A stretch of 53,007 nt of DNA from a virus. Taxonomy: Duplodnaviria; Caudoviricetes. The stretch is taken from positions 1 to 53,007 of IMG/VR virus record IMGVR_UViG_3300020045_012277; one strand, 5' to 3'. This document shows positions 4,150-52,918 of this stretch, piece by piece. The first letter of the stretch is position 1. Every line of letters begins with the position of its first letter. Under the pieces are notes generated by a model. It was not told where the DNA came from, searched no databases, and saw nothing but the letters and a program-made list of their open reading frames with translations. The translations under genes were made by a program, and so were the position numbers.

Positions 4150-4536
4150 TCATAATTTCATCCACACACTGGCATTTGCGCCATGTGCTGTTTTATTTTT
4201 TACCTTGTCTTTCCTTACGAACTGAAAATATTTTCCCTGCCCACGTTTTGGTATTACACCAAAGGCCCGGTTACTTGGCGGATCATCCAGCAGACCCATT
4301 ACTTTCACATGCATACGGAAATCTTCTATCATAAATTCACTGCCACGCTTTACATTCCTACGCAGCCATACCAGGAAGAGTTGCCAGCAAAGCGTGGTCC
4401 ATCCTTTTTCCTTTTTCTCCGCTGTTTCAAGTGCTAATGATAAACCAACATCAGCCAGCTTTTTACCTTCAACCATGTCAAATACAATGGCCGGTTGGTC
4501 AAATAAAGAATACTGATATGGATTTACTGATGGCAT
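4150..4536 (-). CDS. Hypothetical protein
   Basis: 128 aa ORF coupled to upstream stop. Confidence 0.75.
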   Translation of the reverse strand: MPSVNPYQYSLFDQPAIVFDMVEGKKLADVGLSLALETAEKKEKGWTTLCWQLFLVWLRRNVKRGSEFMIEDFRMHVKVMGLLDDPPSNRAFGVIPKRGQGKYFQFVRKDKVKNKTAHGANASVWMKL

Positions 4537-7052
4537 TAAATAGCTTCATCCAATACAAAGTCAAATAATGTAGGTACTGATAATTTGTGCAGCATAGCCT
4601 TAATGTAATAATGTCCATCATTAAAATATTCGCTGTTCAATTCTACACTCACTGCTTTTCTGCCAAGTTCTAAGGCCTTATATGCTGTACTGAATAAACC
4701 TCCGAAAGGATCATCTATTAATTCGCCTTTCATAGAATACCTGTTTATCAATCTTTCAATAATATCAAACTGAAGTGGACAAATATGTTTCTCTTTTTTA
4801 CCGTTCACCTGCTTTGCATTTAATGTATTCATCCGGTTTATATCCGTCCAAACCATATCATTATTACTATGCACGGGCAATGTCATAAACGTGCTGCTTA
4901 ATTTTTCCATCTCGTCCAGATCCTTGCAAACTCTCAGGTGTTCATTGAAATCATACAGCTCAGTGCTATTGTGTTTTTTCCAGGCAGATACTATTCTTTT
5001 CAGATCAATAGCCTGCAGTTCTTCTTTGCTTAAAAAACGGTCACCGTTGCTTCTTTGGTAGGCATGTGCATCCAGTTGCCAAAGTGCTTTTGTATAATCA
5101 GATTTTTCTTTTTGTACAGGATGATCTGCATAAGCATTATTCATTTCACTTGGCGCTTTTCTAAATAGTAAAACATACTCAGGAAGTCCAACTCCCATTT
5201 TGCTTGCATCCTTACATTGTTCTGTCCATCCTAATCTGTAAGTCTGGTTATTTTCAGCCACCACATCAGTAGTCACCGTTATTTTACCCATCAGGTAAAA
5301 ACCATGTTTAATAAAATGCTGTACGGTTTGACCGGAAAAATCTGATATCGTTGTAAAAGATGTGCCATTCTGATAGCTGTATCTTATCCTGTCCTTTACA
5401 TGAATAGCAGCTACCCGCCCAGGTTTTAATACTCTAAGCAGGTCAGGAGTTAAAAAATCCATCTGCTTAAAGAAATTATCATTGCCATGATTATGACCAA
5501 AATCATTATAGTTGTCGCTGTACTCATAATGATCTCCAAAAGGGATTGATGTCAGGATCATGTCCACTGAATTATCAGGCATTTCTTTTTTATCACTATG
5601 TACCGCAACGGTATCATTGTTATAGATAGTTACATTATCATAAGTGATCTTCTTTCCGTTTTTAAAAATTTGTCTTGCCATTTGTGATTTTATTAAGTCT
5701 GAGTTAAGCCCATTTTCTTTTACCAGGGCAATCATTTGTTTATTTAGTTCAAGGTGTTTTGCCCACTTAGCTTTAAGTGTTTTCAATACCTCATATTCGT
5801 TTTCTGTATAAATTATGTGAATGTTTACAGGTTCTTTTTGTCCGAAGCGGTAACACCGGTGAATAGCCTGTATGAAATCATTGAATTTGTAATCTATCCC
5901 GGCGAAAATCATATTGTGACAGTAGTCCTGAAAGTTGCAACCGGATCCTGCAATCTTTGGTTTTGTAAGCAGGTATTTATACTTGCCTTCGCTGAAGGCG
6001 ATCAATAGTTTTTCTTTCAGTTCATTCGGCTGGCTGCCATATACACTGGCAAATGATTCACCTTTAAAATCAGCTTCCAATACTACCCGTTCAGCTTCTA
6101 AATGATGCCAGATAATTGTATTTTCATTGATAGTTTCTGCAATTTCACAGGCTTTATTTATCCTGGCTGCGAGGCTGTCTCTTTTTTCCCTGCTTACTTC
6201 CAATAGAGATTTTGACAGGTCTTTAAAAAGAATTGGCACTCCCCATTTATCTTTTGGCTGTTCTTTTACATTGTAGCTTATACAATGCTCAATGATGTTT
6301 AATTCAGGTAAAATATATTCGCTGTCATCATAGCCAAGATCAGCAGGCGTATTGATAAACGCTGCCCAGGTACTTACCCATTGCCAAAATTCTTTTTTCT
6401 TATTATCATAGAGTTTCAGGTTACCTGCTTTTGTAGAGTCTCTTTTGAAGAACCTCGTTAAAGCATGACCTCTTGAAATCACTCCTAAATAATCTGCATA
6501 GTTCAGTATCTCAATAAAATCATTTGGGGTAGGTGTGGCAGTGGCAACAAACCTGTAGTTTACTTTTTTAAAATACTTTAAAACATAATTGGTTGTTTCC
6601 GTCTGCAGGTTTCTTAAAATAGAGGCTTCGTCAAAAGACACTCCGCAAAACATTTCAGGGTTTATATCTCCCATTCTTACCCGTTCATAATTGGTAAGAT
6701 AGATCTGCACATTTGCGTTTTCAAAGTTGTCAGTATCGGTGATGTAATCAATTTTTAATCCAGTGTTCAGTTTCCTGTTATCCCGTTTAAATTCACCCGA
6801 TACGCCAAGCGGACAAACAATAAGAAAAGGTTTATTGTATTTGGCAATTAACTGTTTTGCAATTTCAAGCTGCATAAAAGTTTTACCAAGACCGAAGGAT
6901 GCGAATATAGCACGGCGGCCACCCTCCAGGCAAAAGTTTACAATATCCTTTTGATGTGGGAAAAGCTTTTCTGAAAATATTAAGTTATCGGTTTCCATTC
7001 CGAACTTTTCAGCTATCACCACTTTTGATTTTAAAAACTCGTTATAATTCAT
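4536..7052 (-). CDS. SNF2-like helicase fused to N4/N6 DNA methyltransferase
   Basis: FGLGKT, DEAS, TATP, QAIHRCYRFGQ helicase motifs; C-terminal TSIPF and DPFGG methyltransferase motifs. Confidence 0.88.
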   Translation of the reverse strand: MNYNEFLKSKVVIAEKFGMETDNLIFSEKLFPHQKDIVNFCLEGGRRAIFASFGLGKTFMQLEIAKQLIAKYNKPFLIVCPLGVSGEFKRDNRKLNTGLKIDYITDTDNFENANVQIYLTNYERVRMGDINPEMFCGVSFDEASILRNLQTETTNYVLKYFKKVNYRFVATATPTPNDFIEILNYADYLGVISRGHALTRFFKRDSTKAGNLKLYDNKKKEFWQWVSTWAAFINTPADLGYDDSEYILPELNIIEHCISYNVKEQPKDKWGVPILFKDLSKSLLEVSREKRDSLAARINKACEIAETINENTIIWHHLEAERVVLEADFKGESFASVYGSQPNELKEKLLIAFSEGKYKYLLTKPKIAGSGCNFQDYCHNMIFAGIDYKFNDFIQAIHRCYRFGQKEPVNIHIIYTENEYEVLKTLKAKWAKHLELNKQMIALVKENGLNSDLIKSQMARQIFKNGKKITYDNVTIYNNDTVAVHSDKKEMPDNSVDMILTSIPFGDHYEYSDNYNDFGHNHGNDNFFKQMDFLTPDLLRVLKPGRVAAIHVKDRIRYSYQNGTSFTTISDFSGQTVQHFIKHGFYLMGKITVTTDVVAENNQTYRLGWTEQCKDASKMGVGLPEYVLLFRKAPSEMNNAYADHPVQKEKSDYTKALWQLDAHAYQRSNGDRFLSKEELQAIDLKRIVSAWKKHNSTELYDFNEHLRVCKDLDEMEKLSSTFMTLPVHSNNDMVWTDINRMNTLNAKQVNGKKEKHICPLQFDIIERLINRYSMKGELIDDPFGGLFSTAYKALELGRKAVSVELNSEYFNDGHYYIKAMLHKLSVPTLFDFVLDEAI

Positions 7053-7558: not shown

Positions 7559-8722
7559 TTAATTCTTACTGAATGTTACATCGGTCAACTGTCTGCCATT
7601 ATTCCAGATGCTATATTTCTTTCCTTCCTTCATTATCTTCATCGTTTCTATCTTACCAAACTTTTTTATATTGCCACCCAGGTCCAATACCCATCCTTCT
7701 TTTTTAGTTCCATCTTCGTACATAAAAGGACGCATCACCCTGCCAATGATCTGGTAATAAAGTGCAAGGCTCATGGTGCTTCTTGCCAGCAATACAGATT
7801 CCAAAGCAGGGAAATCAAAACCGGTGGTGAGCACTCCTACGTTTACCACACATCTTATTTCGCCGCTTTTAAAAGCGGCAAGTATCGTTTCCCGTTTTGC
7901 TTTATCAGTTTCTCCGGTAAGTAATACGGCACCCGGTATGTATTGCAATGCTTTTCTTGCTTCATCCAGTAACGAACAAAACACCAGGCAATTTTTTCTT
8001 TTGGAAAGCAAATAATTGGCCCACTTGGCAGTCAGCTTTTCAAAATTTATTTTCCGGTACAGAAAACGAAGTGAATCAGCTGTAAAATCATTTCCCTGCC
8101 TGTTTACCTGCAGCATACTTCTGTCAATGGCATCTATGGAAAAATATTTAAGCGGGGCAAGGTATCCTGCATCAAACAACACGCTGTTATCAATATAATA
8201 AAGCACCTCGCTGAATACCTTTTCATTGGTGGTAGTTATCCATTCCAGCACAGCACCTTCAAAAGTGGAAGTAAGCCGGTAAGGTGTAGCCGTAAGGCCC
8301 AATACTTTTGCATGTGATATTGAATCAAGAAAATCCTTATACATGCCATTGCTTGCATTCACCAGGTGTGCTTCATCTATGATGATATTCTCAAAGCTTT
8401 TAAATAAATGATGCTTGCTGGCCACACTGCCGATCGTGGCAAAAGTGATATCATCCACCATTTTGCTTCCTGCAGATGCACTATATATGCCGGCACGATA
8501 TCCATAGCTGATAAACTTTGCATAATTCTGTTCCAGGATCTCTTTGCTGGGTTGAAATACAACGGTCTTGCCACGAAGTTCCTTTGCAATGTTGGCAATG
8601 ATAAGGCTCTTGCCACTTCCGGTTGGGTAGATCATCAGCCCATGATCTTTTCGTTCTTCATTGAAAAAATCAACGGCTTTTGTTATGCCTTCGGTTTGAT
8701 ATGGTCTTGGTATGAATGCCAT
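7559..8722 (-). CDS. SF2 DEAD/DEAH helicase (RadD/ResIII-like)
   Basis: PRPYQ, PTGSGKS, IIDEAH, GLTATPYR, VLTTGFD, QIIGRVMR. Confidence 0.92.
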   Translation of the reverse strand: MAFIPRPYQTEGITKAVDFFNEERKDHGLMIYPTGSGKSLIIANIAKELRGKTVVFQPSKEILEQNYAKFISYGYRAGIYSASAGSKMVDDITFATIGSVASKHHLFKSFENIIIDEAHLVNASNGMYKDFLDSISHAKVLGLTATPYRLTSTFEGAVLEWITTTNEKVFSEVLYYIDNSVLFDAGYLAPLKYFSIDAIDRSMLQVNRQGNDFTADSLRFLYRKINFEKLTAKWANYLLSKRKNCLVFCSLLDEARKALQYIPGAVLLTGETDKAKRETILAAFKSGEIRCVVNVGVLTTGFDFPALESVLLARSTMSLALYYQIIGRVMRPFMYEDGTKKEGWVLDLGGNIKKFGKIETMKIMKEGKKYSIWNNGRQLTDVTFSKN

Positions 8723-9921
8723 TACATTACAGCTTCTTCAAATTCTTTTTCAGTTTTTACATCCGTTTCAGTTTGTTTGAAAAGATCTCCCTGCCGTTCA
8801 TCGGGTTCTTCTTCTTCCTTCTCTACCGGCGTATAGTTACCTTCTTTATACAGGCTTACTTCTTCCCTGGCATTGTCCGTTGCGGTTTTCAATTCGTTCC
8901 ACCATTTGTAAGATGACAGGCTGTCAAGCGTTATCTCCGGACTTTTGATCTCCATCCAGCCGCCTGCAGAACTTACATACTTCATACCCGAAAGCCTGAT
9001 GGTATCATAACCCTTGCTTGCTTTTACCTTTACTCCATGCACACGGTAAAGCGATGTGAGTTCATCACCGTGCATCATATCAATATCCTCCACCTCAATT
9101 TTACTGTGTTTGAATACTTCATTAATACAAGCCAGGTGCACATTGAAGTTTGCAAATGCTGTAAGCAGTGAATCTTTTACAATACCGGACCCGGTAACAT
9201 TGTGCTGGTCGCCAATGCCGATCCCTTTAATTACTTCATACTTGTAATTGCAGAATTCATCTTTAATGGTAGCTTCTATAATGGAGAAGCTGCGGCCATC
9301 TTCGGTGAATTCCTCTTTTATCCAATGGTCAAAATAGGTGAGATAGAAATTTGCCAAATATTGGCTCAGATAATTTCCGATAGGTAAGCCAGGAGCACTA
9401 TCAATGATCTCATCTAACAACCATAACAGGTTATTATCTTTTATTTTCCTTCTTAATAATAATTTTAATATTTTATGATCAATGGAAGGATAGAATTTCC
9501 GTAGATCCATTTTTAAACAATACTGCGTACCAGGCACATCACGCAAAGCCTGTTTAACGGCATTTGCGGCGGCATGTATGCCTCTTCCTTTTATGCAACT
9601 AAAAGTATCTTTTGTAAAAACTGATACAAATACCGGCTCCAGCAAATTCATTATTGCATGATGAGTGATCCTGTCTGGAAAATAGGGAAGACGATAGATC
9701 ACTCTTTCTTTTGGTTCATGAACTGTAAAAATTGTATAAGCAGATGTTGAATAAATTTTATTGATCAGCTGAGTATGGAGAGTAAATAAATTAGATTCAC
9801 GATTAATATCATGTATCTGAATTCCATACTGCCAAGATTTACCTTTTCTTGCCTTTTTATCAGCCAGCAATAAATTTTCGATGCTGCAGATGTATTTATA
9901 TATGTTACTTATTCTTTGCAT
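8722..9921 (-). CDS. DGR reverse transcriptase N-terminal half (aa 1-204, no YxDD) fused in frame to an unrelated ~195 aa phage protein
   Basis: EPKERVIYRLPYFPDRITHHA, SCIKGRGIH, KMDLRKFYPSIDH, GLPIGNYLSQYLANFYL..FDHWIKEE; the sequence then switches to non-RT FTEDGRSF.. Confidence 0.9.
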   Translation of the reverse strand: MQRISNIYKYICSIENLLLADKKARKGKSWQYGIQIHDINRESNLFTLHTQLINKIYSTSAYTIFTVHEPKERVIYRLPYFPDRITHHAIMNLLEPVFVSVFTKDTFSCIKGRGIHAAANAVKQALRDVPGTQYCLKMDLRKFYPSIDHKILKLLLRRKIKDNNLLWLLDEIIDSAPGLPIGNYLSQYLANFYLTYFDHWIKEEFTEDGRSFSIIEATIKDEFCNYKYEVIKGIGIGDQHNVTGSGIVKDSLLTAFANFNVHLACINEVFKHSKIEVEDIDMMHGDELTSLYRVHGVKVKASKGYDTIRLSGMKYVSSAGGWMEIKSPEITLDSLSSYKWWNELKTATDNAREEVSLYKEGNYTPVEKEEEEPDERQGDLFKQTETDVKTEKEFEEAVM

Positions 9922-10135
9922 TATCGGCGCTTTGCTTTCAAAGACTCATCTTCGTTTTCACTACCAATGAATCATGTTATTGATTTATTTTTTGCCAAGA
10001 GGCAGGGTCTGCGCCGCATTTATTATTTCAGCAGAGGTGAGAGCTGACATTCGAATTCGAGTTCTGATTATCGTAGTCGTTGTACGACAGACTGGAACCT
10101 GAAGAAGGCCGCTCTTGCAGCACACCACCCATTCC
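9922..10135 (-). ncRNA. Putative DGR template RNA (TR plus spacer to the RT start)
   Basis: Non-coding interval holding TR, followed by ACCCTGCCTCTTGGCAAAAAAT..TTGGTAG..CGAAG, resembling DGR spacer sequences. Confidence 0.7.
10031..10105 (-). repeat. DGR template repeat (TR)
   Basis: 75 nt, AAC/AAT-rich, 19 adenines; differs from both VRs almost only at adenines. Confidence 0.95.
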
Positions 10136-10137
10136 TG

Positions 10138-10524
10138 CTATTTCAACAGAAAATATGTTTCATATAGTTTCAAAAATTGTTTACCTGCATATTCTGCCAG
10201 TTCTCTGCTTTTAAAGCAAAGGCGAGAGCCGACAGCCGAACCCGAGCCCCGATTATCGCAGACGTAGTACGACAGACCGGAACCCGAAGACAGGTCAAAC
10301 CATGGGTAGTATTTCCATTCACTACTATCCGACCAATTAGGTTTCCATGTGTTGTTATCATTATTCACTTTGTTCAATGCTTCGGTAATTATGATAAGCT
10401 TTGTATGCGCTATCATTGCATCCTGATGATGCTTTGGAAATGCAGAAAAATCGGGTAAGACTTTTACTGCATCTAATTTGAGTGCCTTACAAGCAGCTTC
10501 AAACGTTTTGATTTTTTGTGCCAT
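10138..10524 (-). CDS. DGR target protein 1
   Basis: Contains VR1; ends YYPWFDLSSGSGLS..VGSRLCFKSRELAEYAGKQF. Confidence 0.92.
   Translation of the reverse strand: MAQKIKTFEAACKALKLDAVKVLPDFSAFPKHHQDAMIAHTKLIIITEALNKVNNDNNTWKPNWSDSSEWKYYPWFDLSSGSGLSYYVCDNRGSGSAVGSRLCFKSRELAEYAGKQFLKLYETYFLLK
10216..10290 (-). repeat. DGR variable repeat VR1
   Basis: 14 substitutions at TR adenines plus one C>T near the 3' end. Confidence 0.95.
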
Positions 10525-10533
10525 TATTTTTAT

Positions 10534-10998
10534 TTATAGTGTGAAAAAATCTTCATATAGTTTCAAAAATTGTTTACCTGCATATTCTGCCAGTTCTCTG
10601 CTTTTAAAGCAAAGGCGAGAGCCGACACTCGAAGCCGAGTCCCGATTATCGTAGCCGTCGCACGACAGACCGGAACCCGAAGACAGGTCAAACCATGGGT
10701 AGTATTTGTACTGGTTGGGATTTTTCCAGTCAGGTTTCCAACCTTCATTTAAAATTTCTATTATTATTTTAAGGATTTTATATGCCATCTCATCAGGCGT
10801 ATCATTATCATTTACAATACTCGAAATTGTTATTCCCTTAATTTTAAAAGCATCTTCAGCAGTTTTTACACGATCCATTATCCCCTTTGTTTTAAATAAT
10901 TCCATTCCAAAAAGGTTTTCAAGAACTTTTTTTACATCAGGGCATCCATTGTTGTATGCTACGAGAGCATTTTCTTTTGTTATTTGTAAATTTTCCAT
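10534..10998 (-). CDS. DGR target protein 2 (paralog of target 1)
   Basis: Contains VR2; shares a 156 bp block (10552-10707 vs 10159-10314) with target 1. Confidence 0.92.
   Translation of the reverse strand: MENLQITKENALVAYNNGCPDVKKVLENLFGMELFKTKGIMDRVKTAEDAFKIKGITISSIVNDNDTPDEMAYKILKIIIEILNEGWKPDWKNPNQYKYYPWFDLSSGSGLSCDGYDNRDSASSVGSRLCFKSRELAEYAGKQFLKLYEDFFTL
10609..10683 (-). repeat. DGR variable repeat VR2
   Basis: 12 substitutions at TR adenines plus the same C>T near the 3' end. Confidence 0.95.
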
Positions 10999-11009: not shown

Positions 11010-11753
11010 TTAAAACGGGGTTTTATTAAAAGGAATTCTCATTCCCGCATCAGCCACATGTACAGTTTTTCCGGTTGCTTCTTCCACTTCTGATTTAAAC
11101 CTTGCTGCATGGCTGTTGCTTTCGCTTAAATGGATCAGCACAATATTGTTGACAGCACTCAGGTCGTAGGATTGCAGCGTAAGCTTGCAGGTGGCCAGGC
11201 TCATGTGGCTGGTGATCACACGGTCCCTCAGAAACTTTGGATTCACACCATCGGCCAGCCGCTTATCAAGTATGGTTTGGCAGTAGTTGGCCTCAATGAT
11301 GATATTGTTAAGCCCTGCGAAATTGTACTCACAGTAATAACTATCCGTAAGGAATAGAACAGTGCCACATTCTTCATGCTGTACCAGGTAGCCAAGCGGT
11401 TCTTTGCAGTCGTGTTTTGTTTCAAAACATTTTACCAGGAAGCCACGCATCACAGCCGTTTTATCTATATCCATATATCTTGCCCTGTGGTGGGTAGCTG
11501 TTCCCATTTCACTATGCGTGCCTTCTGAGGCCCATACATTAATGCCGGCTGCCAGTACATCTTTCACCGCTTTGCAATGATCCTGGTGCTCATGTGTAAC
11601 AATACATCCCACTACTTTCAGCAGGTTATAACCAAGTGCCTGTTTTATCCGGTCAAACCGTACACCGCATTCAATGAGTAACGCTTCGCCGCTGCTGCTT
11701 TGCAGTATGTAAGCGTTACCCGCTGAATTGCTGTTGATGATGATTAATTCCAT
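11010..11753 (-). CDS. MBL-fold metallo-hydrolase (phage exonuclease, YycJ-like)
   Basis: SNSAGNAY, THEHQDH, HDCKEP, IEANY, HMS, HLS motifs; adjacent to RecT. Confidence 0.9.
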   Translation of the reverse strand: MELIIINSNSAGNAYILQSSSGEALLIECGVRFDRIKQALGYNLLKVVGCIVTHEHQDHCKAVKDVLAAGINVWASEGTHSEMGTATHHRARYMDIDKTAVMRGFLVKCFETKHDCKEPLGYLVQHEECGTVLFLTDSYYCEYNFAGLNNIIIEANYCQTILDKRLADGVNPKFLRDRVITSHMSLATCKLTLQSYDLSAVNNIVLIHLSESNSHAARFKSEVEEATGKTVHVADAGMRIPFNKTPF

Positions 11754-12559
11754 TAGAAGGGTGCTGCTGTTTCTGCAGCCGGTTGCTGATTATTTATTTT
11801 TGTTCCTACTACTTCAGCATTGTCAAAACTCATCGGCTTTGAGTTGCCGTTGTTTCTTACCTCTGCCATTACTTTATCCGCCGCATCTTCATCCACATCT
11901 GTTTCAATGGCGTTGGCCATTTCTACACTCAGGTAACCATATTTGCTCAGCAGGTTTCTCAATACCGTTTTCAATGCCATGGCATCAAACTCGTTTTTCC
12001 AGGGTGATCCGTTGAAGGAATAAGATTTAGAATACTTGGCAGCATGGGCCGTCACTCTTTCTTTGGTCATGTACAGGGTTTTGCTAAAGCCGTTCAGCAG
12101 TTCAAAATGTGCGAAGTAGCCTATCACGGTTTCGCTTTTCTTTTCACCGGTCAGGTCAAATTCACCCGTGAGCTTATTAGCGGTTTTATATTCACCTTCA
12201 TACACCACATCTGCATTCATAAACCTGTACTGCCCGGTACGCAGCGCTAATTGTATTAATCCTTTGTACCCGATCTGAAACTGTGGCACTCCTTTGTATG
12301 CCACTATCCAGGCAAAACCAAGGCTTTTATTAATAGGCAGTTTCAGAATGGCGGCTTTCATCGTTTGCATGATCACCTGCTTGGGATCACATTCCTGCAA
12401 ACTCTTTTCTCCCGCATACAGATCTATGATGGAGGCGGCAAATGCATTGCGGCTTTCACCAAGTGCATTCATCAGCTGGTTCTGTACATAATCTTCGTTG
12501 ATGGCAAGCTTCAGGGAGTCTATCCGCTGAATGGCCATGCTTTTGTTTTCTGTTGTCAT
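11753..12559 (-). CDS. recT: RecT-family single-strand annealing recombinase
   Basis: LPINKSLGFAWIVAY, QFQIGYKGLIQLALRTGQY, PWKNEFDAMALKTVLRNLL. Confidence 0.93.
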   Translation of the reverse strand: MTTENKSMAIQRIDSLKLAINEDYVQNQLMNALGESRNAFAASIIDLYAGEKSLQECDPKQVIMQTMKAAILKLPINKSLGFAWIVAYKGVPQFQIGYKGLIQLALRTGQYRFMNADVVYEGEYKTANKLTGEFDLTGEKKSETVIGYFAHFELLNGFSKTLYMTKERVTAHAAKYSKSYSFNGSPWKNEFDAMALKTVLRNLLSKYGYLSVEMANAIETDVDEDAADKVMAEVRNNGNSKPMSFDNAEVVGTKINNQQPAAETAAPF

Positions 12560-12591: not shown

Positions 12592-14604
12592 TTATACCTC
12601 TGCCATTTCTGCTTCAGATGCAGTTACCCTCAGCTTTTTATCTGATGCGGATACGATCAGGTTGATCAACTGGCAATCTGTTTCGGGCAGGTTGATCACA
12701 CTCTCCCGGTTATCTACCCATACCGGTGCCTGCACATCGTAGTATTCAGAAAGTGTATTGATGATATCAAGACCAGCCTGAATTTTTGCAGCAGTGTTAG
12801 CATCAGCATAGGGCACACCGTTGATCAGCGTGGTGCAGGCTTCTGTCTGTCCTCCGTTTATTTGCTCTTCAAACATTTTGAAACGAACTATTTTGAAACG
12901 GCCATTGATACGGTTTTCCAGTGTGTCCATCTTTGCTTTGGTAAACTGTTCTATGGAGAATTCAACACCTTCAAGACCGGCAAGCTCCTGCGCCATGGTG
13001 GCTTCCTGCGTTTGCAGTTCATCAATTCTTGCCAGTTGTTTTTCACGCTGGCCCCTGGCAGATAAGATCTGTTTCAGATCGTCCACCTGCGCCTGCAGTT
13101 CTTTTTTACGTTGTAGCAGGGCACTGTTATCATCTGCTTTGTATGGAGTATTTATTTGTACGTTCAGCGTTTCTATCTGTTCCAGATGTGTGCTGTATTC
13201 AATATTGGCAGCAATCGCATCTTTCACCTGCTGATCTTCCGCATTGCTTAGCCTGGCATGTTCTGCTTCCAGCGTTGCAATATCATTTTGCAATGTTTCT
13301 ATTTCAGCTTTCAGCAAACTGCCCGCTTCTTTTGTGTTTGCTAATTTTGCTTGCAGCACGGTTATTTCATCGGCAAGCAATTTTCCTGCATCTACTATTT
13401 CATCAAGGCGTTTTGATTTATTGCTGTTGAAGTTGGCGGTCAATTCTGCTTTTTTTGCCTCCACATCATTGGTTTCATAGGCTCTTTTGCAGGCCGGACA
13501 ATGAAATTCTTTATCATTAAAAATTAATTCCTCTTTTGCAACGGTTTCCCAACGATTGACAAGCTCTTCTTTTTCTTTCTCAATTTTGCTTAGTTTTTCT
13601 GCGTCTTTGTTGTAGTTTACAAGCAGATCATTTTTTGCATCCTGCTTACTGCGGAGGGCAGATTTTTTATTGATAATGAACTGCTGCCTGTCACGGCTTA
13701 TTTGCTGCACATTATTTTTTACTTCAAATTCTATTTGCTGATTGCGTGCCCGCAGATCACCGGCTTCTTTTATTTTTTCTGTGATGGATTGCTGGTGTGC
13801 TTTTGCTGCCTGTGATTTATTCATCAGCAAGCTGTCCACGTTTTCTATATCAGCATTCAGCGCCGTTATTTCTGCTTCTGCCTGGCTATAATCTTTTTCT
13901 TCAGGTAAGGCCCTGTTTGCTTCTTCAATACGTGAGGGAAGGAGGATCAGTTCATCTTTCAGCTTTTTCTTTTTAGCAGAAATTTCTTTTTTAAATTCAT
14001 CTATTGTTTTGTCTGCTTTCAAGGCATTGATCAGTTGTGTAAAATCATAGCTGGTTCCATTATTCAGTATCTCATCCAGGACAGCATCATCTGAAATATT
14101 TCCGGCCATTTGCATCAGCACTGCACGGCGGTCCTGCCATTTCAGGCTATTGAAATACATGGTATTGGTGATCAGTTTAAAAAGCTTTTCATCCAGCAGG
14201 GTAGCGATCTTTGCCTGGTATTCTTCCTGCTTCATCGGTACATCATTCCAGAAGTATGCTGTTTCATGTCCGCTGAATTCGCTTTCTGTGGATCCTCTTT
14301 TCTTTGTCCATTTTTCTCTGAAGCTGCGGCGCAGTTGTATTTCATTTCCGTTTACAAGCAGCACTGCTTCTACTTCGTGATCCAGTTTGTGAAAGGGTTG
14401 ATTGTTTGCATCCAGGGTTTTAATTTCAAAATCTTTCCTGTCTGTGCTGTCTTTTCCAAACAGCAACCATAGGAAAGCGTCCATTAACGTGGTTTTTCCG
14501 GTGGCATTTTCGCCAAAGATGTTTGTGATGTGTGTAAACAGGATGGTAAATGACCGGATCCCTTTGAAGTTGGATAGACTGAGTTTTTTAATTTCAATTT
14601 TCAT
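12592..14604 (-). CDS. SbcC/Rad50-like AAA ATPase
   Basis: LSNFKGI, GENATGKTT, long coiled coil with CPAC zinc hook, VWVDNRESV. Confidence 0.88.
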   Translation of the reverse strand: MKIEIKKLSLSNFKGIRSFTILFTHITNIFGENATGKTTLMDAFLWLLFGKDSTDRKDFEIKTLDANNQPFHKLDHEVEAVLLVNGNEIQLRRSFREKWTKKRGSTESEFSGHETAYFWNDVPMKQEEYQAKIATLLDEKLFKLITNTMYFNSLKWQDRRAVLMQMAGNISDDAVLDEILNNGTSYDFTQLINALKADKTIDEFKKEISAKKKKLKDELILLPSRIEEANRALPEEKDYSQAEAEITALNADIENVDSLLMNKSQAAKAHQQSITEKIKEAGDLRARNQQIEFEVKNNVQQISRDRQQFIINKKSALRSKQDAKNDLLVNYNKDAEKLSKIEKEKEELVNRWETVAKEELIFNDKEFHCPACKRAYETNDVEAKKAELTANFNSNKSKRLDEIVDAGKLLADEITVLQAKLANTKEAGSLLKAEIETLQNDIATLEAEHARLSNAEDQQVKDAIAANIEYSTHLEQIETLNVQINTPYKADDNSALLQRKKELQAQVDDLKQILSARGQREKQLARIDELQTQEATMAQELAGLEGVEFSIEQFTKAKMDTLENRINGRFKIVRFKMFEEQINGGQTEACTTLINGVPYADANTAAKIQAGLDIINTLSEYYDVQAPVWVDNRESVINLPETDCQLINLIVSASDKKLRVTASEAEMAEV

Positions 14605-19355: not shown

Positions 19356-20561
19356 ATGGAGAACATCAACACATTCCCGATGATTTACAAACACCGGATC
19401 AACTCAGCCGGCATGGTTCCAATTGTCATTTGCATTACGATCAACAACAAACCCGTGGCCTATGAGCCACTGCACAAAAGAGTATTGCTATCCGATTGGG
19501 ATCCTGAAAAAAGAAAAGTAAAAGACGACCTGCTCAATTCGCTTATCAAAAAAAGAATTGCGGAGTTGGAAGAGATCTTTATAAAAAAGATGCTGGCTGA
19601 TGAAAGCATCACCGGACCAATGGTAAAAAAAATACTGGCCGGCGAACATCAGCCGAAAAACTTCTTTGAGTATGCTGAATACATCATCAATAATAAAACT
19701 CTTGCGGATGGATTACCGTACAATGATGACACCAGGCGCCGGTATCGTGATGAAATTAAAAGACTGAAGCAATTCCAGCCACATCTCTTTCTTTCCGATA
19801 TAACTACACCGTTCCTTAATCAGTACCGCAAATGGCTGCTAAATGATTACAGGAAGAAAGATAAAACCAAACTTCACAAGAACAGCATCTGGAAAACATT
19901 CGGATTCATCCGCATGATCTGGCGCTGTGCCGACAAAGACCGATTGGTGAAGCATGAAAACAATCCTTTTCAAAACTTTGAAGTGGGATCCTTTGAAACT
20001 GACCTGCAGAAAATAAAGTACCTTGAACTGAGCCAGCTCGAGATAATAGAACAAACACTCATCACTAAAGAATCACTGATGGATCCTTTTACGATTAGAG
20101 TAGGGTGGCGTTTCCTGGCCATGTGCGTGTTTGGCTTACGAATAAGCGATGCCATGAGATTGGATGAAGGATTTATAAACGATGCCGGTTATCTTGATTT
20201 CACTCCATTCAAAACACGCCGGCACGGTAACACTGCACAAGTGCCCATTGTAAACGACCGGCAAAAAAGATACCTGAGTAAAACATTTGAACTTCCCTTG
20301 CCCGCAAAGAATCATAAATCATTCAGAACGGACTTTAATGATCACCTGAAAATAATCACTGCCATGTCGGGAATCTCTATTCATCTTACATCACATGTGG
20401 GTCGTCATACTATGGGATCTTTCCTGGTTGATGGTGATGTAACGGAAAAATCAGCAATGGTGATGCTGGGAGTAAAAAGCGATCGGGTAATAAAAACGTA
20501 TATGCATTTGAAACAAAGTAAGCTTATTTCGGAGGCAAATAAACTCAACAATGTAATGTGA
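19356..20561 (+). CDS. int: Tyrosine integrase with N-terminal arm-binding and SAM-like domains
   Basis: FGLRISD (R), FKT (K), SHVGRHT (HxxR), TYMH (Y); Bacteroidota-type N-terminus. Confidence 0.93.
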   Translation: MENINTFPMIYKHRINSAGMVPIVICITINNKPVAYEPLHKRVLLSDWDPEKRKVKDDLLNSLIKKRIAELEEIFIKKMLADESITGPMVKKILAGEHQPKNFFEYAEYIINNKTLADGLPYNDDTRRRYRDEIKRLKQFQPHLFLSDITTPFLNQYRKWLLNDYRKKDKTKLHKNSIWKTFGFIRMIWRCADKDRLVKHENNPFQNFEVGSFETDLQKIKYLELSQLEIIEQTLITKESLMDPFTIRVGWRFLAMCVFGLRISDAMRLDEGFINDAGYLDFTPFKTRRHGNTAQVPIVNDRQKRYLSKTFELPLPAKNHKSFRTDFNDHLKIITAMSGISIHLTSHVGRHTMGSFLVDGDVTEKSAMVMLGVKSDRVIKTYMHLKQSKLISEANKLNNVM

Positions 20562-51394: not shown

Positions 51395-52918
51395 TCAATC
51401 ATCAAGGATCGACTGAGCAATATTGGGTTGATAATTCAACTGCTGCAAGTCTTCCACCATATTTATCTTTGGAAATTCATCTTTTATTTTCCTGTGATCA
51501 CCTTTGTAAAACACCAATACATTCTGATGCATCTTGCCCACCTTTCTGCCGCCTTCAAACTGCCGTCCTACTCTTATCGGTAAGGATCCTGCTACATTTA
51601 TCAGAATAATTTCATTATATAACAATGCTCCTGATTCATTGAAAGATTCTATAGTTTCACTAACAAAGTTTCTGTAAAATCCGTTTTCATCTCTTATATC
51701 ACCAACTACAAAGCAAGCAAATCGATTTTCTTTTAACCTTGCGATTGTTTTTTGAATGATGGATCTGTACACTGTTTTGAATGATCCATAATCCATATTA
51801 CTCAGGTCCGCCGGATCATCACTGTATTGTTCCAGGTCGTGGTAGGGAGGGCAGGAAAAAATGAAGTCGTAATTCTCTTGTATTTCATCCAATACCTTAT
51901 TGCTATCACCGCTGATCCATCCAATGGCTGAACCACTCATGCCCGTTTTACTTACTTTACTCCATTGGTTCCTGTTTTCTTCTACCTGGTCATTTCTCAG
52001 GTCAATGCCAATATAATCAAAGCCAAGCACCCCGGCCACTATGCCACGCACCGAGCCTCCGGCAAATGGATCAATTATGGAGCCGCCTGCAGGACAAAAC
52101 CATTTATAACAGATCTCACAAAGCACAGGATCAAATGTGCTGGCTCCTTCATATAGGTGCATGCCCTTTTTTCTTGCCTGCTCTATTATTTCATCCCATT
52201 CAGGTTCACGGCCCAGCAGATCTCTCATTTCATTTCTTAATGCATATACAGCCGGAGATTGTCCGCTTTTAGCTATCAGTTCCACTTCTTCACGTGTGGC
52301 CTGGCTATTAAAGCCAAGCGATTGCCACAGTTTCTTTCTATCCTGCCAATATCCCTGCCTGCTGTCAAAAATGGAGAAGGGAGGAATAATAAAACGCTCC
52401 TGCAAAGAGGAAATTATATATGTCTTATCCTCTCCGTCCGTATTCTTCAGCATGGTTTCAAAATCCATCGTGTCAAACCCGGGTAGGTCAACTGTCATCT
52501 TCAGGTTTTCATAGTCGAGTTCATAACTCTGAATGAAGTCAAACAAACCCTGCTGCGTTACTTTGGCATAGATGGAAGAATAAACCAATACCATGGCAGC
52601 TGCTTCCTTTTTATTTCTGCAGTATATAAAGGTGGCGGGCAGCATGTCCGGCACTTCTGTGCCTTCACTCTTCAGCTGTTCCAGTATGCGGGTTCTGTGG
52701 CGGCCATCCAGGCAGTAATTAATGTTTTCAGCATCGCAGTGCCACACATAAAAAGGTTGGGTAAAATTATTTTCCAGGATAGAAGCCCGCAGTTTATTTT
52801 TTGCCTCTGGTGGTAGTTCTTTAAAATCTTCCTGCTGTATGTACCTGAATTCCTTCCAATTTGCAGGCTCGGTGAGTAGTACCCGTGATGAGAGCTTTTG
52901 CGTAACTGTTGCCTCCAT
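51395..52918 (-). CDS. ParB-like nuclease domain fused to DNA methyltransferase
   Basis: LRASILENNF..LDGRHR (ParB-N); IDPFAGGSVRG and FSCPPY methyltransferase motifs. Confidence 0.88.
   Translation of the reverse strand: MEATVTQKLSSRVLLTEPANWKEFRYIQQEDFKELPPEAKNKLRASILENNFTQPFYVWHCDAENINYCLDGRHRTRILEQLKSEGTEVPDMLPATFIYCRNKKEAAAMVLVYSSIYAKVTQQGLFDFIQSYELDYENLKMTVDLPGFDTMDFETMLKNTDGEDKTYIISSLQERFIIPPFSIFDSRQGYWQDRKKLWQSLGFNSQATREEVELIAKSGQSPAVYALRNEMRDLLGREPEWDEIIEQARKKGMHLYEGASTFDPVLCEICYKWFCPAGGSIIDPFAGGSVRGIVAGVLGFDYIGIDLRNDQVEENRNQWSKVSKTGMSGSAIGWISGDSNKVLDEIQENYDFIFSCPPYHDLEQYSDDPADLSNMDYGSFKTVYRSIIQKTIARLKENRFACFVVGDIRDENGFYRNFVSETIESFNESGALLYNEIILINVAGSLPIRVGRQFEGGRKVGKMHQNVLVFYKGDHRKIKDEFPKINMVEDLQQLNYQPNIAQSILDD

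Follow-up and report, generated by a model that had tools for sequence, protein, structure and literature searches.

A probable decayed copy of a conserved diversity-generating retroelement with two small targets among the early genes of a Caudoviricetes phage

The described systems closest to the locus studied here are the diversity-generating retroelements (DGRs) of phages. The DGR of Bordetella phage BPP-1 comprises Mtd, Avd, a template repeat (TR) and the reverse transcriptase (RT) bRT. The available text of Roux et al. (2021) reports that viral DGR targets are mostly tail proteins (PMC8144416), and that of Wu et al. (2018) records two targets in 50 of 372 DGRs (13%), as well as VR classes (UVR2, 3, 5 and 6) that match nothing known (PMC5758913). 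According to the accessible part of Benler et al. (2021), the Quimbyviridae have a DGR target outside the structural genes, in a defence-related island; the Quimbyvirus targets are C-type lectin proteins, one of them beside tail genes, and the RT is encoded in three overlapping frames (PMC8008677). The DGR RTs of crAss-like phages, for example that of cr55_1, are the closest to the RT described below (50-63% identity over residues 1-204). The cr55_1 RT follows a gene annotated as 'tail protein', whereas the RT here follows small tandem targets.

We analysed a genome of 53,007 bp (IMG/VR record IMGVR_UViG_3300020045_012277, Caudoviricetes), referred to here in its full length as the window, which carries direct terminal repeats and to which CheckV assigns 100% completeness. 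It encodes a DGR-like cassette on its minus strand, with the following features.

12592 to 14604, minus strand: SMC/LmuB-like ATPase, the first gene of the series in the early operon
11753 to 12559, minus strand: RecT, upstream of the targets
11010 to 11753, minus strand: MBL-fold hydrolase, between RecT and target 2
10534 to 10998, minus strand: target 2, the long form, 154 aa (PHROG 11581, E = 5.6e-30)
10608 to 10683, minus strand: VR2, 76 nt, inside target 2
10607 to 10623, minus strand: 17-nt IMH-like element (GSRLCF codons) at the 3' end of VR2
10552 to 10707, minus strand: 156-bp shared block, target 2 copy
10138 to 10524, minus strand: target 1, the short form without the N-terminal helices, 128 aa (PHROG 11581, E = 4.9e-26)
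10215 to 10290, minus strand: VR1, 76 nt, inside target 1
10214 to 10230, minus strand: the same IMH-like element, VR1 copy
10159 to 10314, minus strand: 156-bp shared block, target 1 copy
10030 to 10105, minus strand: TR, 76 nt, non-coding, between target 1 and the RT
10029 to 10045, minus strand: IMH*-like divergent version of the element in the TR
9310 to 9921, minus strand: RT remnant, codons 1-204 of a 399-aa ORF, with the RT motifs as far as IGNYLSQ but lacking the YxDD box
8722 to 9309, minus strand: downstream gene 'X' in the same 399-aa ORF, joined in frame to the end of the RT remnant and missing roughly 20 codons at its start
7559 to 8722, minus strand: superfamily-2 helicase, downstream of the RT/X ORF

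The order on the minus strand is SMC-like ATPase, RecT, MBL hydrolase, target 2, target 1, TR, RT ORF (9921 to 8722) and helicase. An integrase is encoded at 19356-20561, and the terminase, portal, major head, tape measure and other virion genes lie at 30-50 kb, so the earlier note was right to place the targets after recT and the MBL gene, far from the tail genes. The cassette differs from that of BPP-1 in several respects. Its targets are not a tail fibre and number two per TR, no Avd was found and relatives carry instead an unrelated post-RT gene of about 100 aa (phrog_19665), the target models have no C-type lectin match, and the RT is truncated. About 24 codons also follow the VR (24 after VR2, close to the 25 given earlier), so that any cis element falls in coding sequence. 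The window resembles the Quimbyviridae in being a Bacteroidota phage with a non-structural DGR target; the part of that work available to us proposes that the Quimbyviridae protein is involved in phage-host conflict (PMC8008677). Unlike the targets described there, the two here are small paralogues in tandem, belong to a family that lacks annotation and immediately precede the TR and RT. The combination of a long and a short target with a position in an early operon finds no mention for the multi-target DGRs in the available text of Wu et al. (PMC5758913).

Read in the VR frame, the TR translates as SSGSSLSYNDYDNQNSNSNVSSHLC. We compared the three 76-nt repeats in an ungapped alignment. VR1 differs from the TR at 15 positions, 14 of which are among the 19 TR adenines (hypergeometric P = 2e-10), and VR2 at 13 positions, 12 of them TR adenines (P = 2e-8). 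This adenine-restricted pattern (14/15 and 12/13) is the one expected of a DGR, and the alignment returned the adenine counts that had been read from the sequence alone. The sole non-adenine mismatch is the same C>T in VR1 and VR2, at TR position 72 of 76; this shared change near the 3' end had also been noticed. Common A>G changes had been put at five, and the alignment gives seven. The two target genes share a 156-bp block in which all 8 differences (8/8) fall at TR adenines, exactly as first described. Outside this block their identity drops to background, and the block continues past the TR homology for 24 nt on its upstream and 56 nt on its downstream side. Searching the entire 53,007-bp genome on both strands, tail genes included, with adenines left free and up to 8 other mismatches permitted, turned up no fourth repeat copy or remote target. 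This cassette, in which one TR serves two tandem small targets, is a true DGR.

The same arrangement recurs widely. Homologues of the targets comprise 1535 of 1560 candidate proteins at E <= 0.001, mostly of 150-160 aa, and by a pattern scan relatives are encoded in at least 448 stretches of viral DNA and in 206 of bacterial species genomes. We examined 80 viral and 79 bacterial-genome loci, near-duplicates among them. An RT lies just after the targets in 71 of the 80 viral and 58 of the 79 bacterial-genome loci. From 1 to 5 small targets, usually a long then a short one, precede a single TR and RT, and of 42 distinct loci with two targets, 40 have the longer one first. To be accepted, a VR needed a length of 50 nt or more, 5 or more mismatches at adenines and no more than 2 elsewhere. 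By this test 139 of 147 viral targets beside an RT are variable and 8 fail; since it caps non-adenine mismatches, the pooled count of 2038 adenine against 47 other mismatches overstates the specificity. Two variable targets were found in 56 viral loci, three in 6, four in 1 and one in 3; among the 58 RT-bearing bacterial-genome loci, 41 have two and 9 have three. Family members also occur in stretches in which no RT was found (9/80 viral and 21/79 genomic loci), indicating that the target protein exists without a DGR as well. Where a title names the host, it is almost always one of the Bacteroidota, among them Chitinophagaceae, Flavobacterium, Chryseobacterium, Dyadobacter and Pedobacter. The literature search returned no description of this target family, which the supplements of large DGR catalogues may nevertheless list. 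This DGR type is conserved and widespread in Bacteroidota phages and is apparently undescribed.

Comparison across the family points to a boundary on either side of the diversified sites. We placed 120 unique TR/VR pairs on a common coordinate in which 0 is the first base of the Gly codon in VGSRLC. The variable core extends from about -41 to -5; each of the four bases is found in it, and about 10-70% of pairs retain adenine, depending on the site. Flanking sites behave as fixed TR/VR differences. Downstream, within the IMH-like element, these are at relative positions 0 (A>G, 96/96), +7 (A>G, 86/86) and +11 (A>T, 68/70), and upstream they are at -48 (A>G, 50/50) and -55 (A>G, 32/34). Four of the seven A>G changes shared by VR1 and VR2 are at these fixed sites, and the C>T of the window sits at +11. 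At the level of sequence, these four changes and the C>T site are best read as family-fixed differences rather than as fresh mutagenesis. The earlier suggestion that selection or shared ancestry explains the common changes is only partly right: four of the seven belong to a TR-versus-VR difference that the whole family carries.

Over 98 distinct sequences of the family, the stretch GGCTCNCGCCTTTGCTT is conserved to at least 90% at the DNA level, and this extends to most third codon positions. At the invariant Gly126 of the VR, Ser is encoded by 63 of 67 unique TRs, and at the invariant Arg128, His or Gln by 56 of 67. Because the change at +11, and that at -55 in the window, are synonymous, selection on the protein alone does not explain these fixed sites. 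A conserved stretch with fixed TR differences fits a putative IMH in the VR and IMH* in the TR, and the VR 3' end of the window differs from the TR in this way at the sequence level; the 3' C>T that had been called IMH/IMH*-like does fall within this stretch. RNAalifold on the 98 family sequences gave no consensus structure after the VR, and the window by itself folds a 7-bp stem just past the IMH-like element. On a more speculative and doubtful reading, the fixed A-to-G flanks around a 37-nt core would be hard limits of information transfer, a feature that to our knowledge has not been described for other DGRs.

The RT had been taken as intact. Instead, everything from the YxDD box onward is absent, and what is left is fused in frame to another gene. 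The N-terminal part, adjacent to the TR, belongs to the DGR clade of RTs: PHROG 1423 'Reverse transcriptase' matches the ORF at E = 1.4e-79, the closest matches are phage RTs, and residues 181-187 (IGNYLSQ) correspond to the I/LGxxxSQ motif typical of DGR RTs. Pfam RVT_1 aligns residues 73-205 to profile positions 10-145 of 205, and all RT profiles end at residue 203-213 of the 399-aa ORF. The 441-aa RT of cr55_1 aligns through its residues 28-232 only and matches nowhere else in the complete 53-kb genome, in which we found no second RT. In a tblastn search of phages with the RT ORF, 131 of 131 matches cover about 51% of it and none (0/131) reaches 80%. By contrast, the RT extends to at least residue 338 of the cr55_1 RT in 123 of 129 RT-bearing loci, the other 6 meeting the end of the stretch.

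A related and syntenic locus, L042, shows how the fused ORF may have arisen. Residues 1-203 of the ORF are 66% identical to residues 24-226 of its 343-aa RT, which continues ...FDHWIKEN-KEVKYYFRYADD, where the window has ...FDHWIKEE-FTEDGRSF; the YADD of relatives is about 15 residues beyond the point at which the homology stops. Residues 210-398 of the ORF correspond to residues 22-198 of a 198-aa protein that L042 encodes in a gene of its own. The order in L042 is RT, a 98-aa gene (phrog_19665), a NinB/Orf homologue, one more gene, the 198-aa gene and a helicase. Gene X has 228 representatives at E <= 0.001, which among the matches listed are mostly stand-alone genes of about 200-220 aa; it has no Pfam or PHROG family, and a scan of viral contigs found no relative. 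The window genome contains no homologue of the small post-RT gene of relatives. It likewise contains no match to the accessory protein Avd (PF05635) at E <= 10, a search that found Avd in 3 of 14 control genomes.

With RT homology stopping at residue 203-205, short of a catalytically complete enzyme with a YxDD box, the RT appears to be broken in this genome, its catalytic half gone. The window would then hold a DGR remnant, not a complete DGR. The cassette in this genome is probably inactive, as an RT without the YxDD box and what lies beyond it would most likely leave it dead. The complete lack of non-adenine TR/VR mismatches outside the IMH site suggests that the loss was recent relative to the last homing event.

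Alternatively, the DGR may still be active, either because the truncation is an assembly artefact or because the full RT of a co-infecting phage or prophage acts in trans. The perfect conservation of the TR and both VRs at non-adenine positions (outside the IMH site), with the VRs differing at adenines only, counts in favour of this. Provision in trans has a precedent in the Bordetella phage, where avd, TR and brt work from a plasmid, as related in the available text of PMC5758913. An assembly join could account for the deletion in that no sequencing run examined contains the window itself (word shares 0.06-0.08). Close relatives with an intact RT continuation also exist. Contigs from three freshwater metagenome runs match positions 9310-9400, with 1 difference in 91 nt in two of them (X1 and X2), and diverge from the window exactly at 9310-9314 (breakpoint 9310/9309); on the minus strand, in the RT frame, their overhang opens a ...YYFRYA box. 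These independent contigs are at the same time evidence for the truncation of the RT in the window. Against this, the reading frame of the ORF continues uninterrupted through the junction, and its residues 210-398 match a gene that syntenic relatives carry further downstream, the outcome expected of a simple deletion. The record moreover has terminal repeats, is rated complete and has no second RT, and the post-RT gene is missing too. We therefore consider continued activity unlikely and prefer the reading of a decayed cassette.

The two targets are small paralogous proteins. Both match PHROG 11581, a group of phage proteins of unknown function, and the last 71 residues of target 1 are 73% identical to target 2; profile searches assigned neither to a Pfam, NCBIfam or PADLOC family. 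Their Kyte-Doolittle maxima over 19 residues are 0.56 and 0.75, with no hydrophobic or membrane segment in either, in agreement with the previously remarked lack of signal peptides, and the maximum exceeds 1.6 in 0 of 117 and 1 of 50 relatives. AlphaFold models of the targets (mean pLDDT 85.3; pTM 0.69 and 0.81) consist of helices, a low-confidence variable loop and two C-terminal helices, with a short beta hairpin in the 154-aa protein. Neither model matches any solved fold, C-type lectin included. The minimal C-type lectin fold raised as a question in the earlier note was thus not found in either prediction, and display of the VR on such a fold is something that these targets may do, as far as models can tell.

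That the targets could act as a pair, an idea already put forward, is strengthened by the long/short order in the 40 of 42 loci and by a heterodimer model that passed its controls. The model reaches an ipSAE of 0.63, compared with 0.00 for the best of 3 controls; among solved complexes 58 of 80 attain that mark, and among mismatched pairs 2 of 110, a calibration that is only rough here because the dimer was built on our own alignments. At least 88% of contacts recur between runs, and the pLDDT of the partners is at least 80. In the model the VGSRL segment of each chain packs against the C-terminus of the other, from which the invariance of VGSRL would follow. Because the chains are paralogues, the heterodimer result may reflect homodimers, which are equally possible. 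We predict that the targets probably form a dimer with their variable loops exposed. Charge complementarity of the pair was considered and rejected: the pI values in the window are 5.1 and 8.9, but the first target is the more acidic in only 21 of 42 pairs.

The placement of related loci bears on what the targets do. These loci are situated in early, replication or transposition modules. Some have as neighbours a Mu-type transposase, a MuB-like ATPase, DUF3164 and DUF4494, and others an exonuclease, a primase and a methyltransferase, or an SMC-like ATPase, an MBL hydrolase and NinB/Orf. In every annotated context, across at least three unrelated phage backbones, the cassette is on the strand of the early or DNA-metabolism genes. 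A distant DGR-free homologue in Bacteroides phage LoVEphage is found among methyltransferases, a resolvase and a tRNA ligase. Together, these early and DNA-metabolism contexts and the LoVEphage neighbours support a non-structural role. As the targets are encoded among early DNA-metabolism genes, we infer that they act inside the cell, as binders, and this gene position would make counter-defence or host takeover their likeliest role, at somewhat below even odds.

Other functions were weighed against this one. The targets could serve the lysogen as variable prophage sensors or decoys that recognise rival phages, leading to superinfection exclusion. Such a role would suit the integrase of this phage and the many relatives that are Mu-like or reside in bacterial chromosomes, and DGR-diversified putative antigen sensors have been described in bacteria (PMC10907252, in the part accessible to us). 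The proteins have, however, no effector domain and no PADLOC match, and their genes are within a lytic early operon rather than a moron-like island, which makes this role improbable. The targets could also be virion-associated, as small receptor-binding or adaptor proteins that switch host range in the manner of BPP-1. The invariable association of the cassette with early or DNA-metabolism genes on those three or more backbones, the gap of over 19 kb that separates it from the closest virion gene of the window and the lack of any structural annotation in PHROG 11581 argue otherwise, and we regard a virion role as distinctly improbable. Finally, although the 156-bp block exceeds the TR homology on both sides and indicates that gene conversion occurred between the targets, the proposal that the three repeats are merely paralogous sequence diverged by chance or gene conversion, and not a DGR, is refuted for practical purposes by the adenine restriction (P = 2e-10 and 2e-8) and by the same pattern beside a DGR-type RT in 129 other loci.

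Given these comparisons, we propose, with a probability of roughly 60%, that the window carries a decayed copy of a conserved DGR cassette of Bacteroidota phages. In the intact cassette, the non-coding TR would be transcribed and then copied by an error-prone RT that misreads adenines. The resulting cDNA would overwrite a core of about 37 nt (about 13 codons) in the two paralogous small targets just upstream, and the 17-nt element with the GSRLCF codons, with its fixed TR differences, probably acts as the IMH that makes the transfer one-way. The targets themselves would be soluble proteins of about 125-155 aa, built of helices, a short beta hairpin and a loop that bears the variable residues. 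They would probably dimerise with the invariant VGSRL of each chain on the C-terminus of its partner and the variable loops exposed, and may work inside an infected cell or a lysogen, binding adaptably to some variable factor of the host or of a competitor. The more specific picture of a dimeric, cytoplasmic, 'antibody-like' early binder on a scaffold other than the C-type lectin, aimed at variable host immunity or nuclease proteins, is doubtful.

In the lineage of the window, an in-frame deletion of roughly 1.5-2 kb would have joined RT codon 204 to about codon 20 of gene X, which sits 1-2 kb downstream of the RT in relatives. It would have removed the YxDD box, the rest of the RT and the small post-RT gene that most relatives have. 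The cassette would then be a recently inactivated relic in which the two VRs are frozen in their last states. As such, the window offers a natural 'off' state, with a dead RT and an intact TR and VRs, for comparison with intact relatives.

In the usual view, phage DGRs almost always adjust host range by way of tail proteins, and this family breaks that picture. Here the proteins that carry the hypervariable loop are small and soluble, their genes stand among those of early DNA metabolism, and they usually come as a long and a short partner. If the targets bind host factors, they would be naturally occurring binders that are programmable and act inside the cell, and DGR-based protein evolution would gain a new scaffold. 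If their reading as cytoplasmic binders is true, targeted hypermutation in phages would serve counter-defence as well as adsorption.

In the family survey, fixed differences between the template repeat (TR) and the variable repeats (VRs) lie at adenines on both sides of a variable core of ~37 nt. At a site where all VRs have Gly, 63 of the 67 unique TRs encode Ser, and at another, where all VRs have Arg, 56/67 encode His or Gln. The 17-nt element at the 3' end of each VR (IMH-like) and its TR version (IMH*-like) were located in the window, as was a hairpin (7-bp stem, 3-nt loop), which directly follows the IMH-like element on its 3' side in both targets and is absent from the TR. No structural conservation of this stem was detected among 98 family sequences.

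10029-10045, 17-nt element, TR version (IMH*-like)
10214-10230, 17-nt IMH-like element of VR1
10607-10623, 17-nt IMH-like element of VR2
10596-10612, minus strand, 7-bp stem

Immediately 3' of the reverse transcriptase (RT), 49 of the 80 viral loci encode a protein of ~100 aa assigned to phrog_19665 (for example, L042:8022-8318 and L006:7239-7541). The gene matches no Pfam family and was not found in the window. We suggest that it may take the place of Avd as an accessory factor of this type of DGR. Some loci, namely the viral locus L028 and the bacterial-genome loci L107 and L150, carry four or five targets per single TR; two of the L028 targets are located upstream of the cassette, at a distance of 3-6 kb.

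The following genes of the window, the first two from the target operon, were also annotated:

11010-11753, minus strand, MBL-fold hydrolase adjoining the targets
12592-14604, minus strand, AAA_23 ATPase (670 aa), first in the operon
4536-7052, minus strand, SNF2 helicase fused to an N6/N4 DNA methylase (838 aa)
51395-52918, minus strand, ParB-like nuclease fused to a DNA methyltransferase (507 aa)

Over residues 16-65 alone, the hydrolase weakly matches the anti-Pycsar protein Apyc1 (PF23023), with a score below threshold (20.1 bits; cut-off, 50) that probably reflects generic MBL similarity. The ATPase resembles SMC, Rad50 and RecF, and in PADLOC it matches the Lamassu protein LmuB best (E = 4.8e-18).

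The pair of AAA_23 ATPase and MBL genes recurs next to the targets in five viral loci. Members of the target family also occur 3' of SMC-like and MBL genes, sometimes with RecT, in one viral locus (L047) and five bacterial-genome loci (L145, L151, L153, L162 and L164), with no RT within the stretch examined; Alistipes putredinis DSM 17216 provides an RT-less example. Thus, we conclude that the target family is a regular member of the recombination module even without a DGR.
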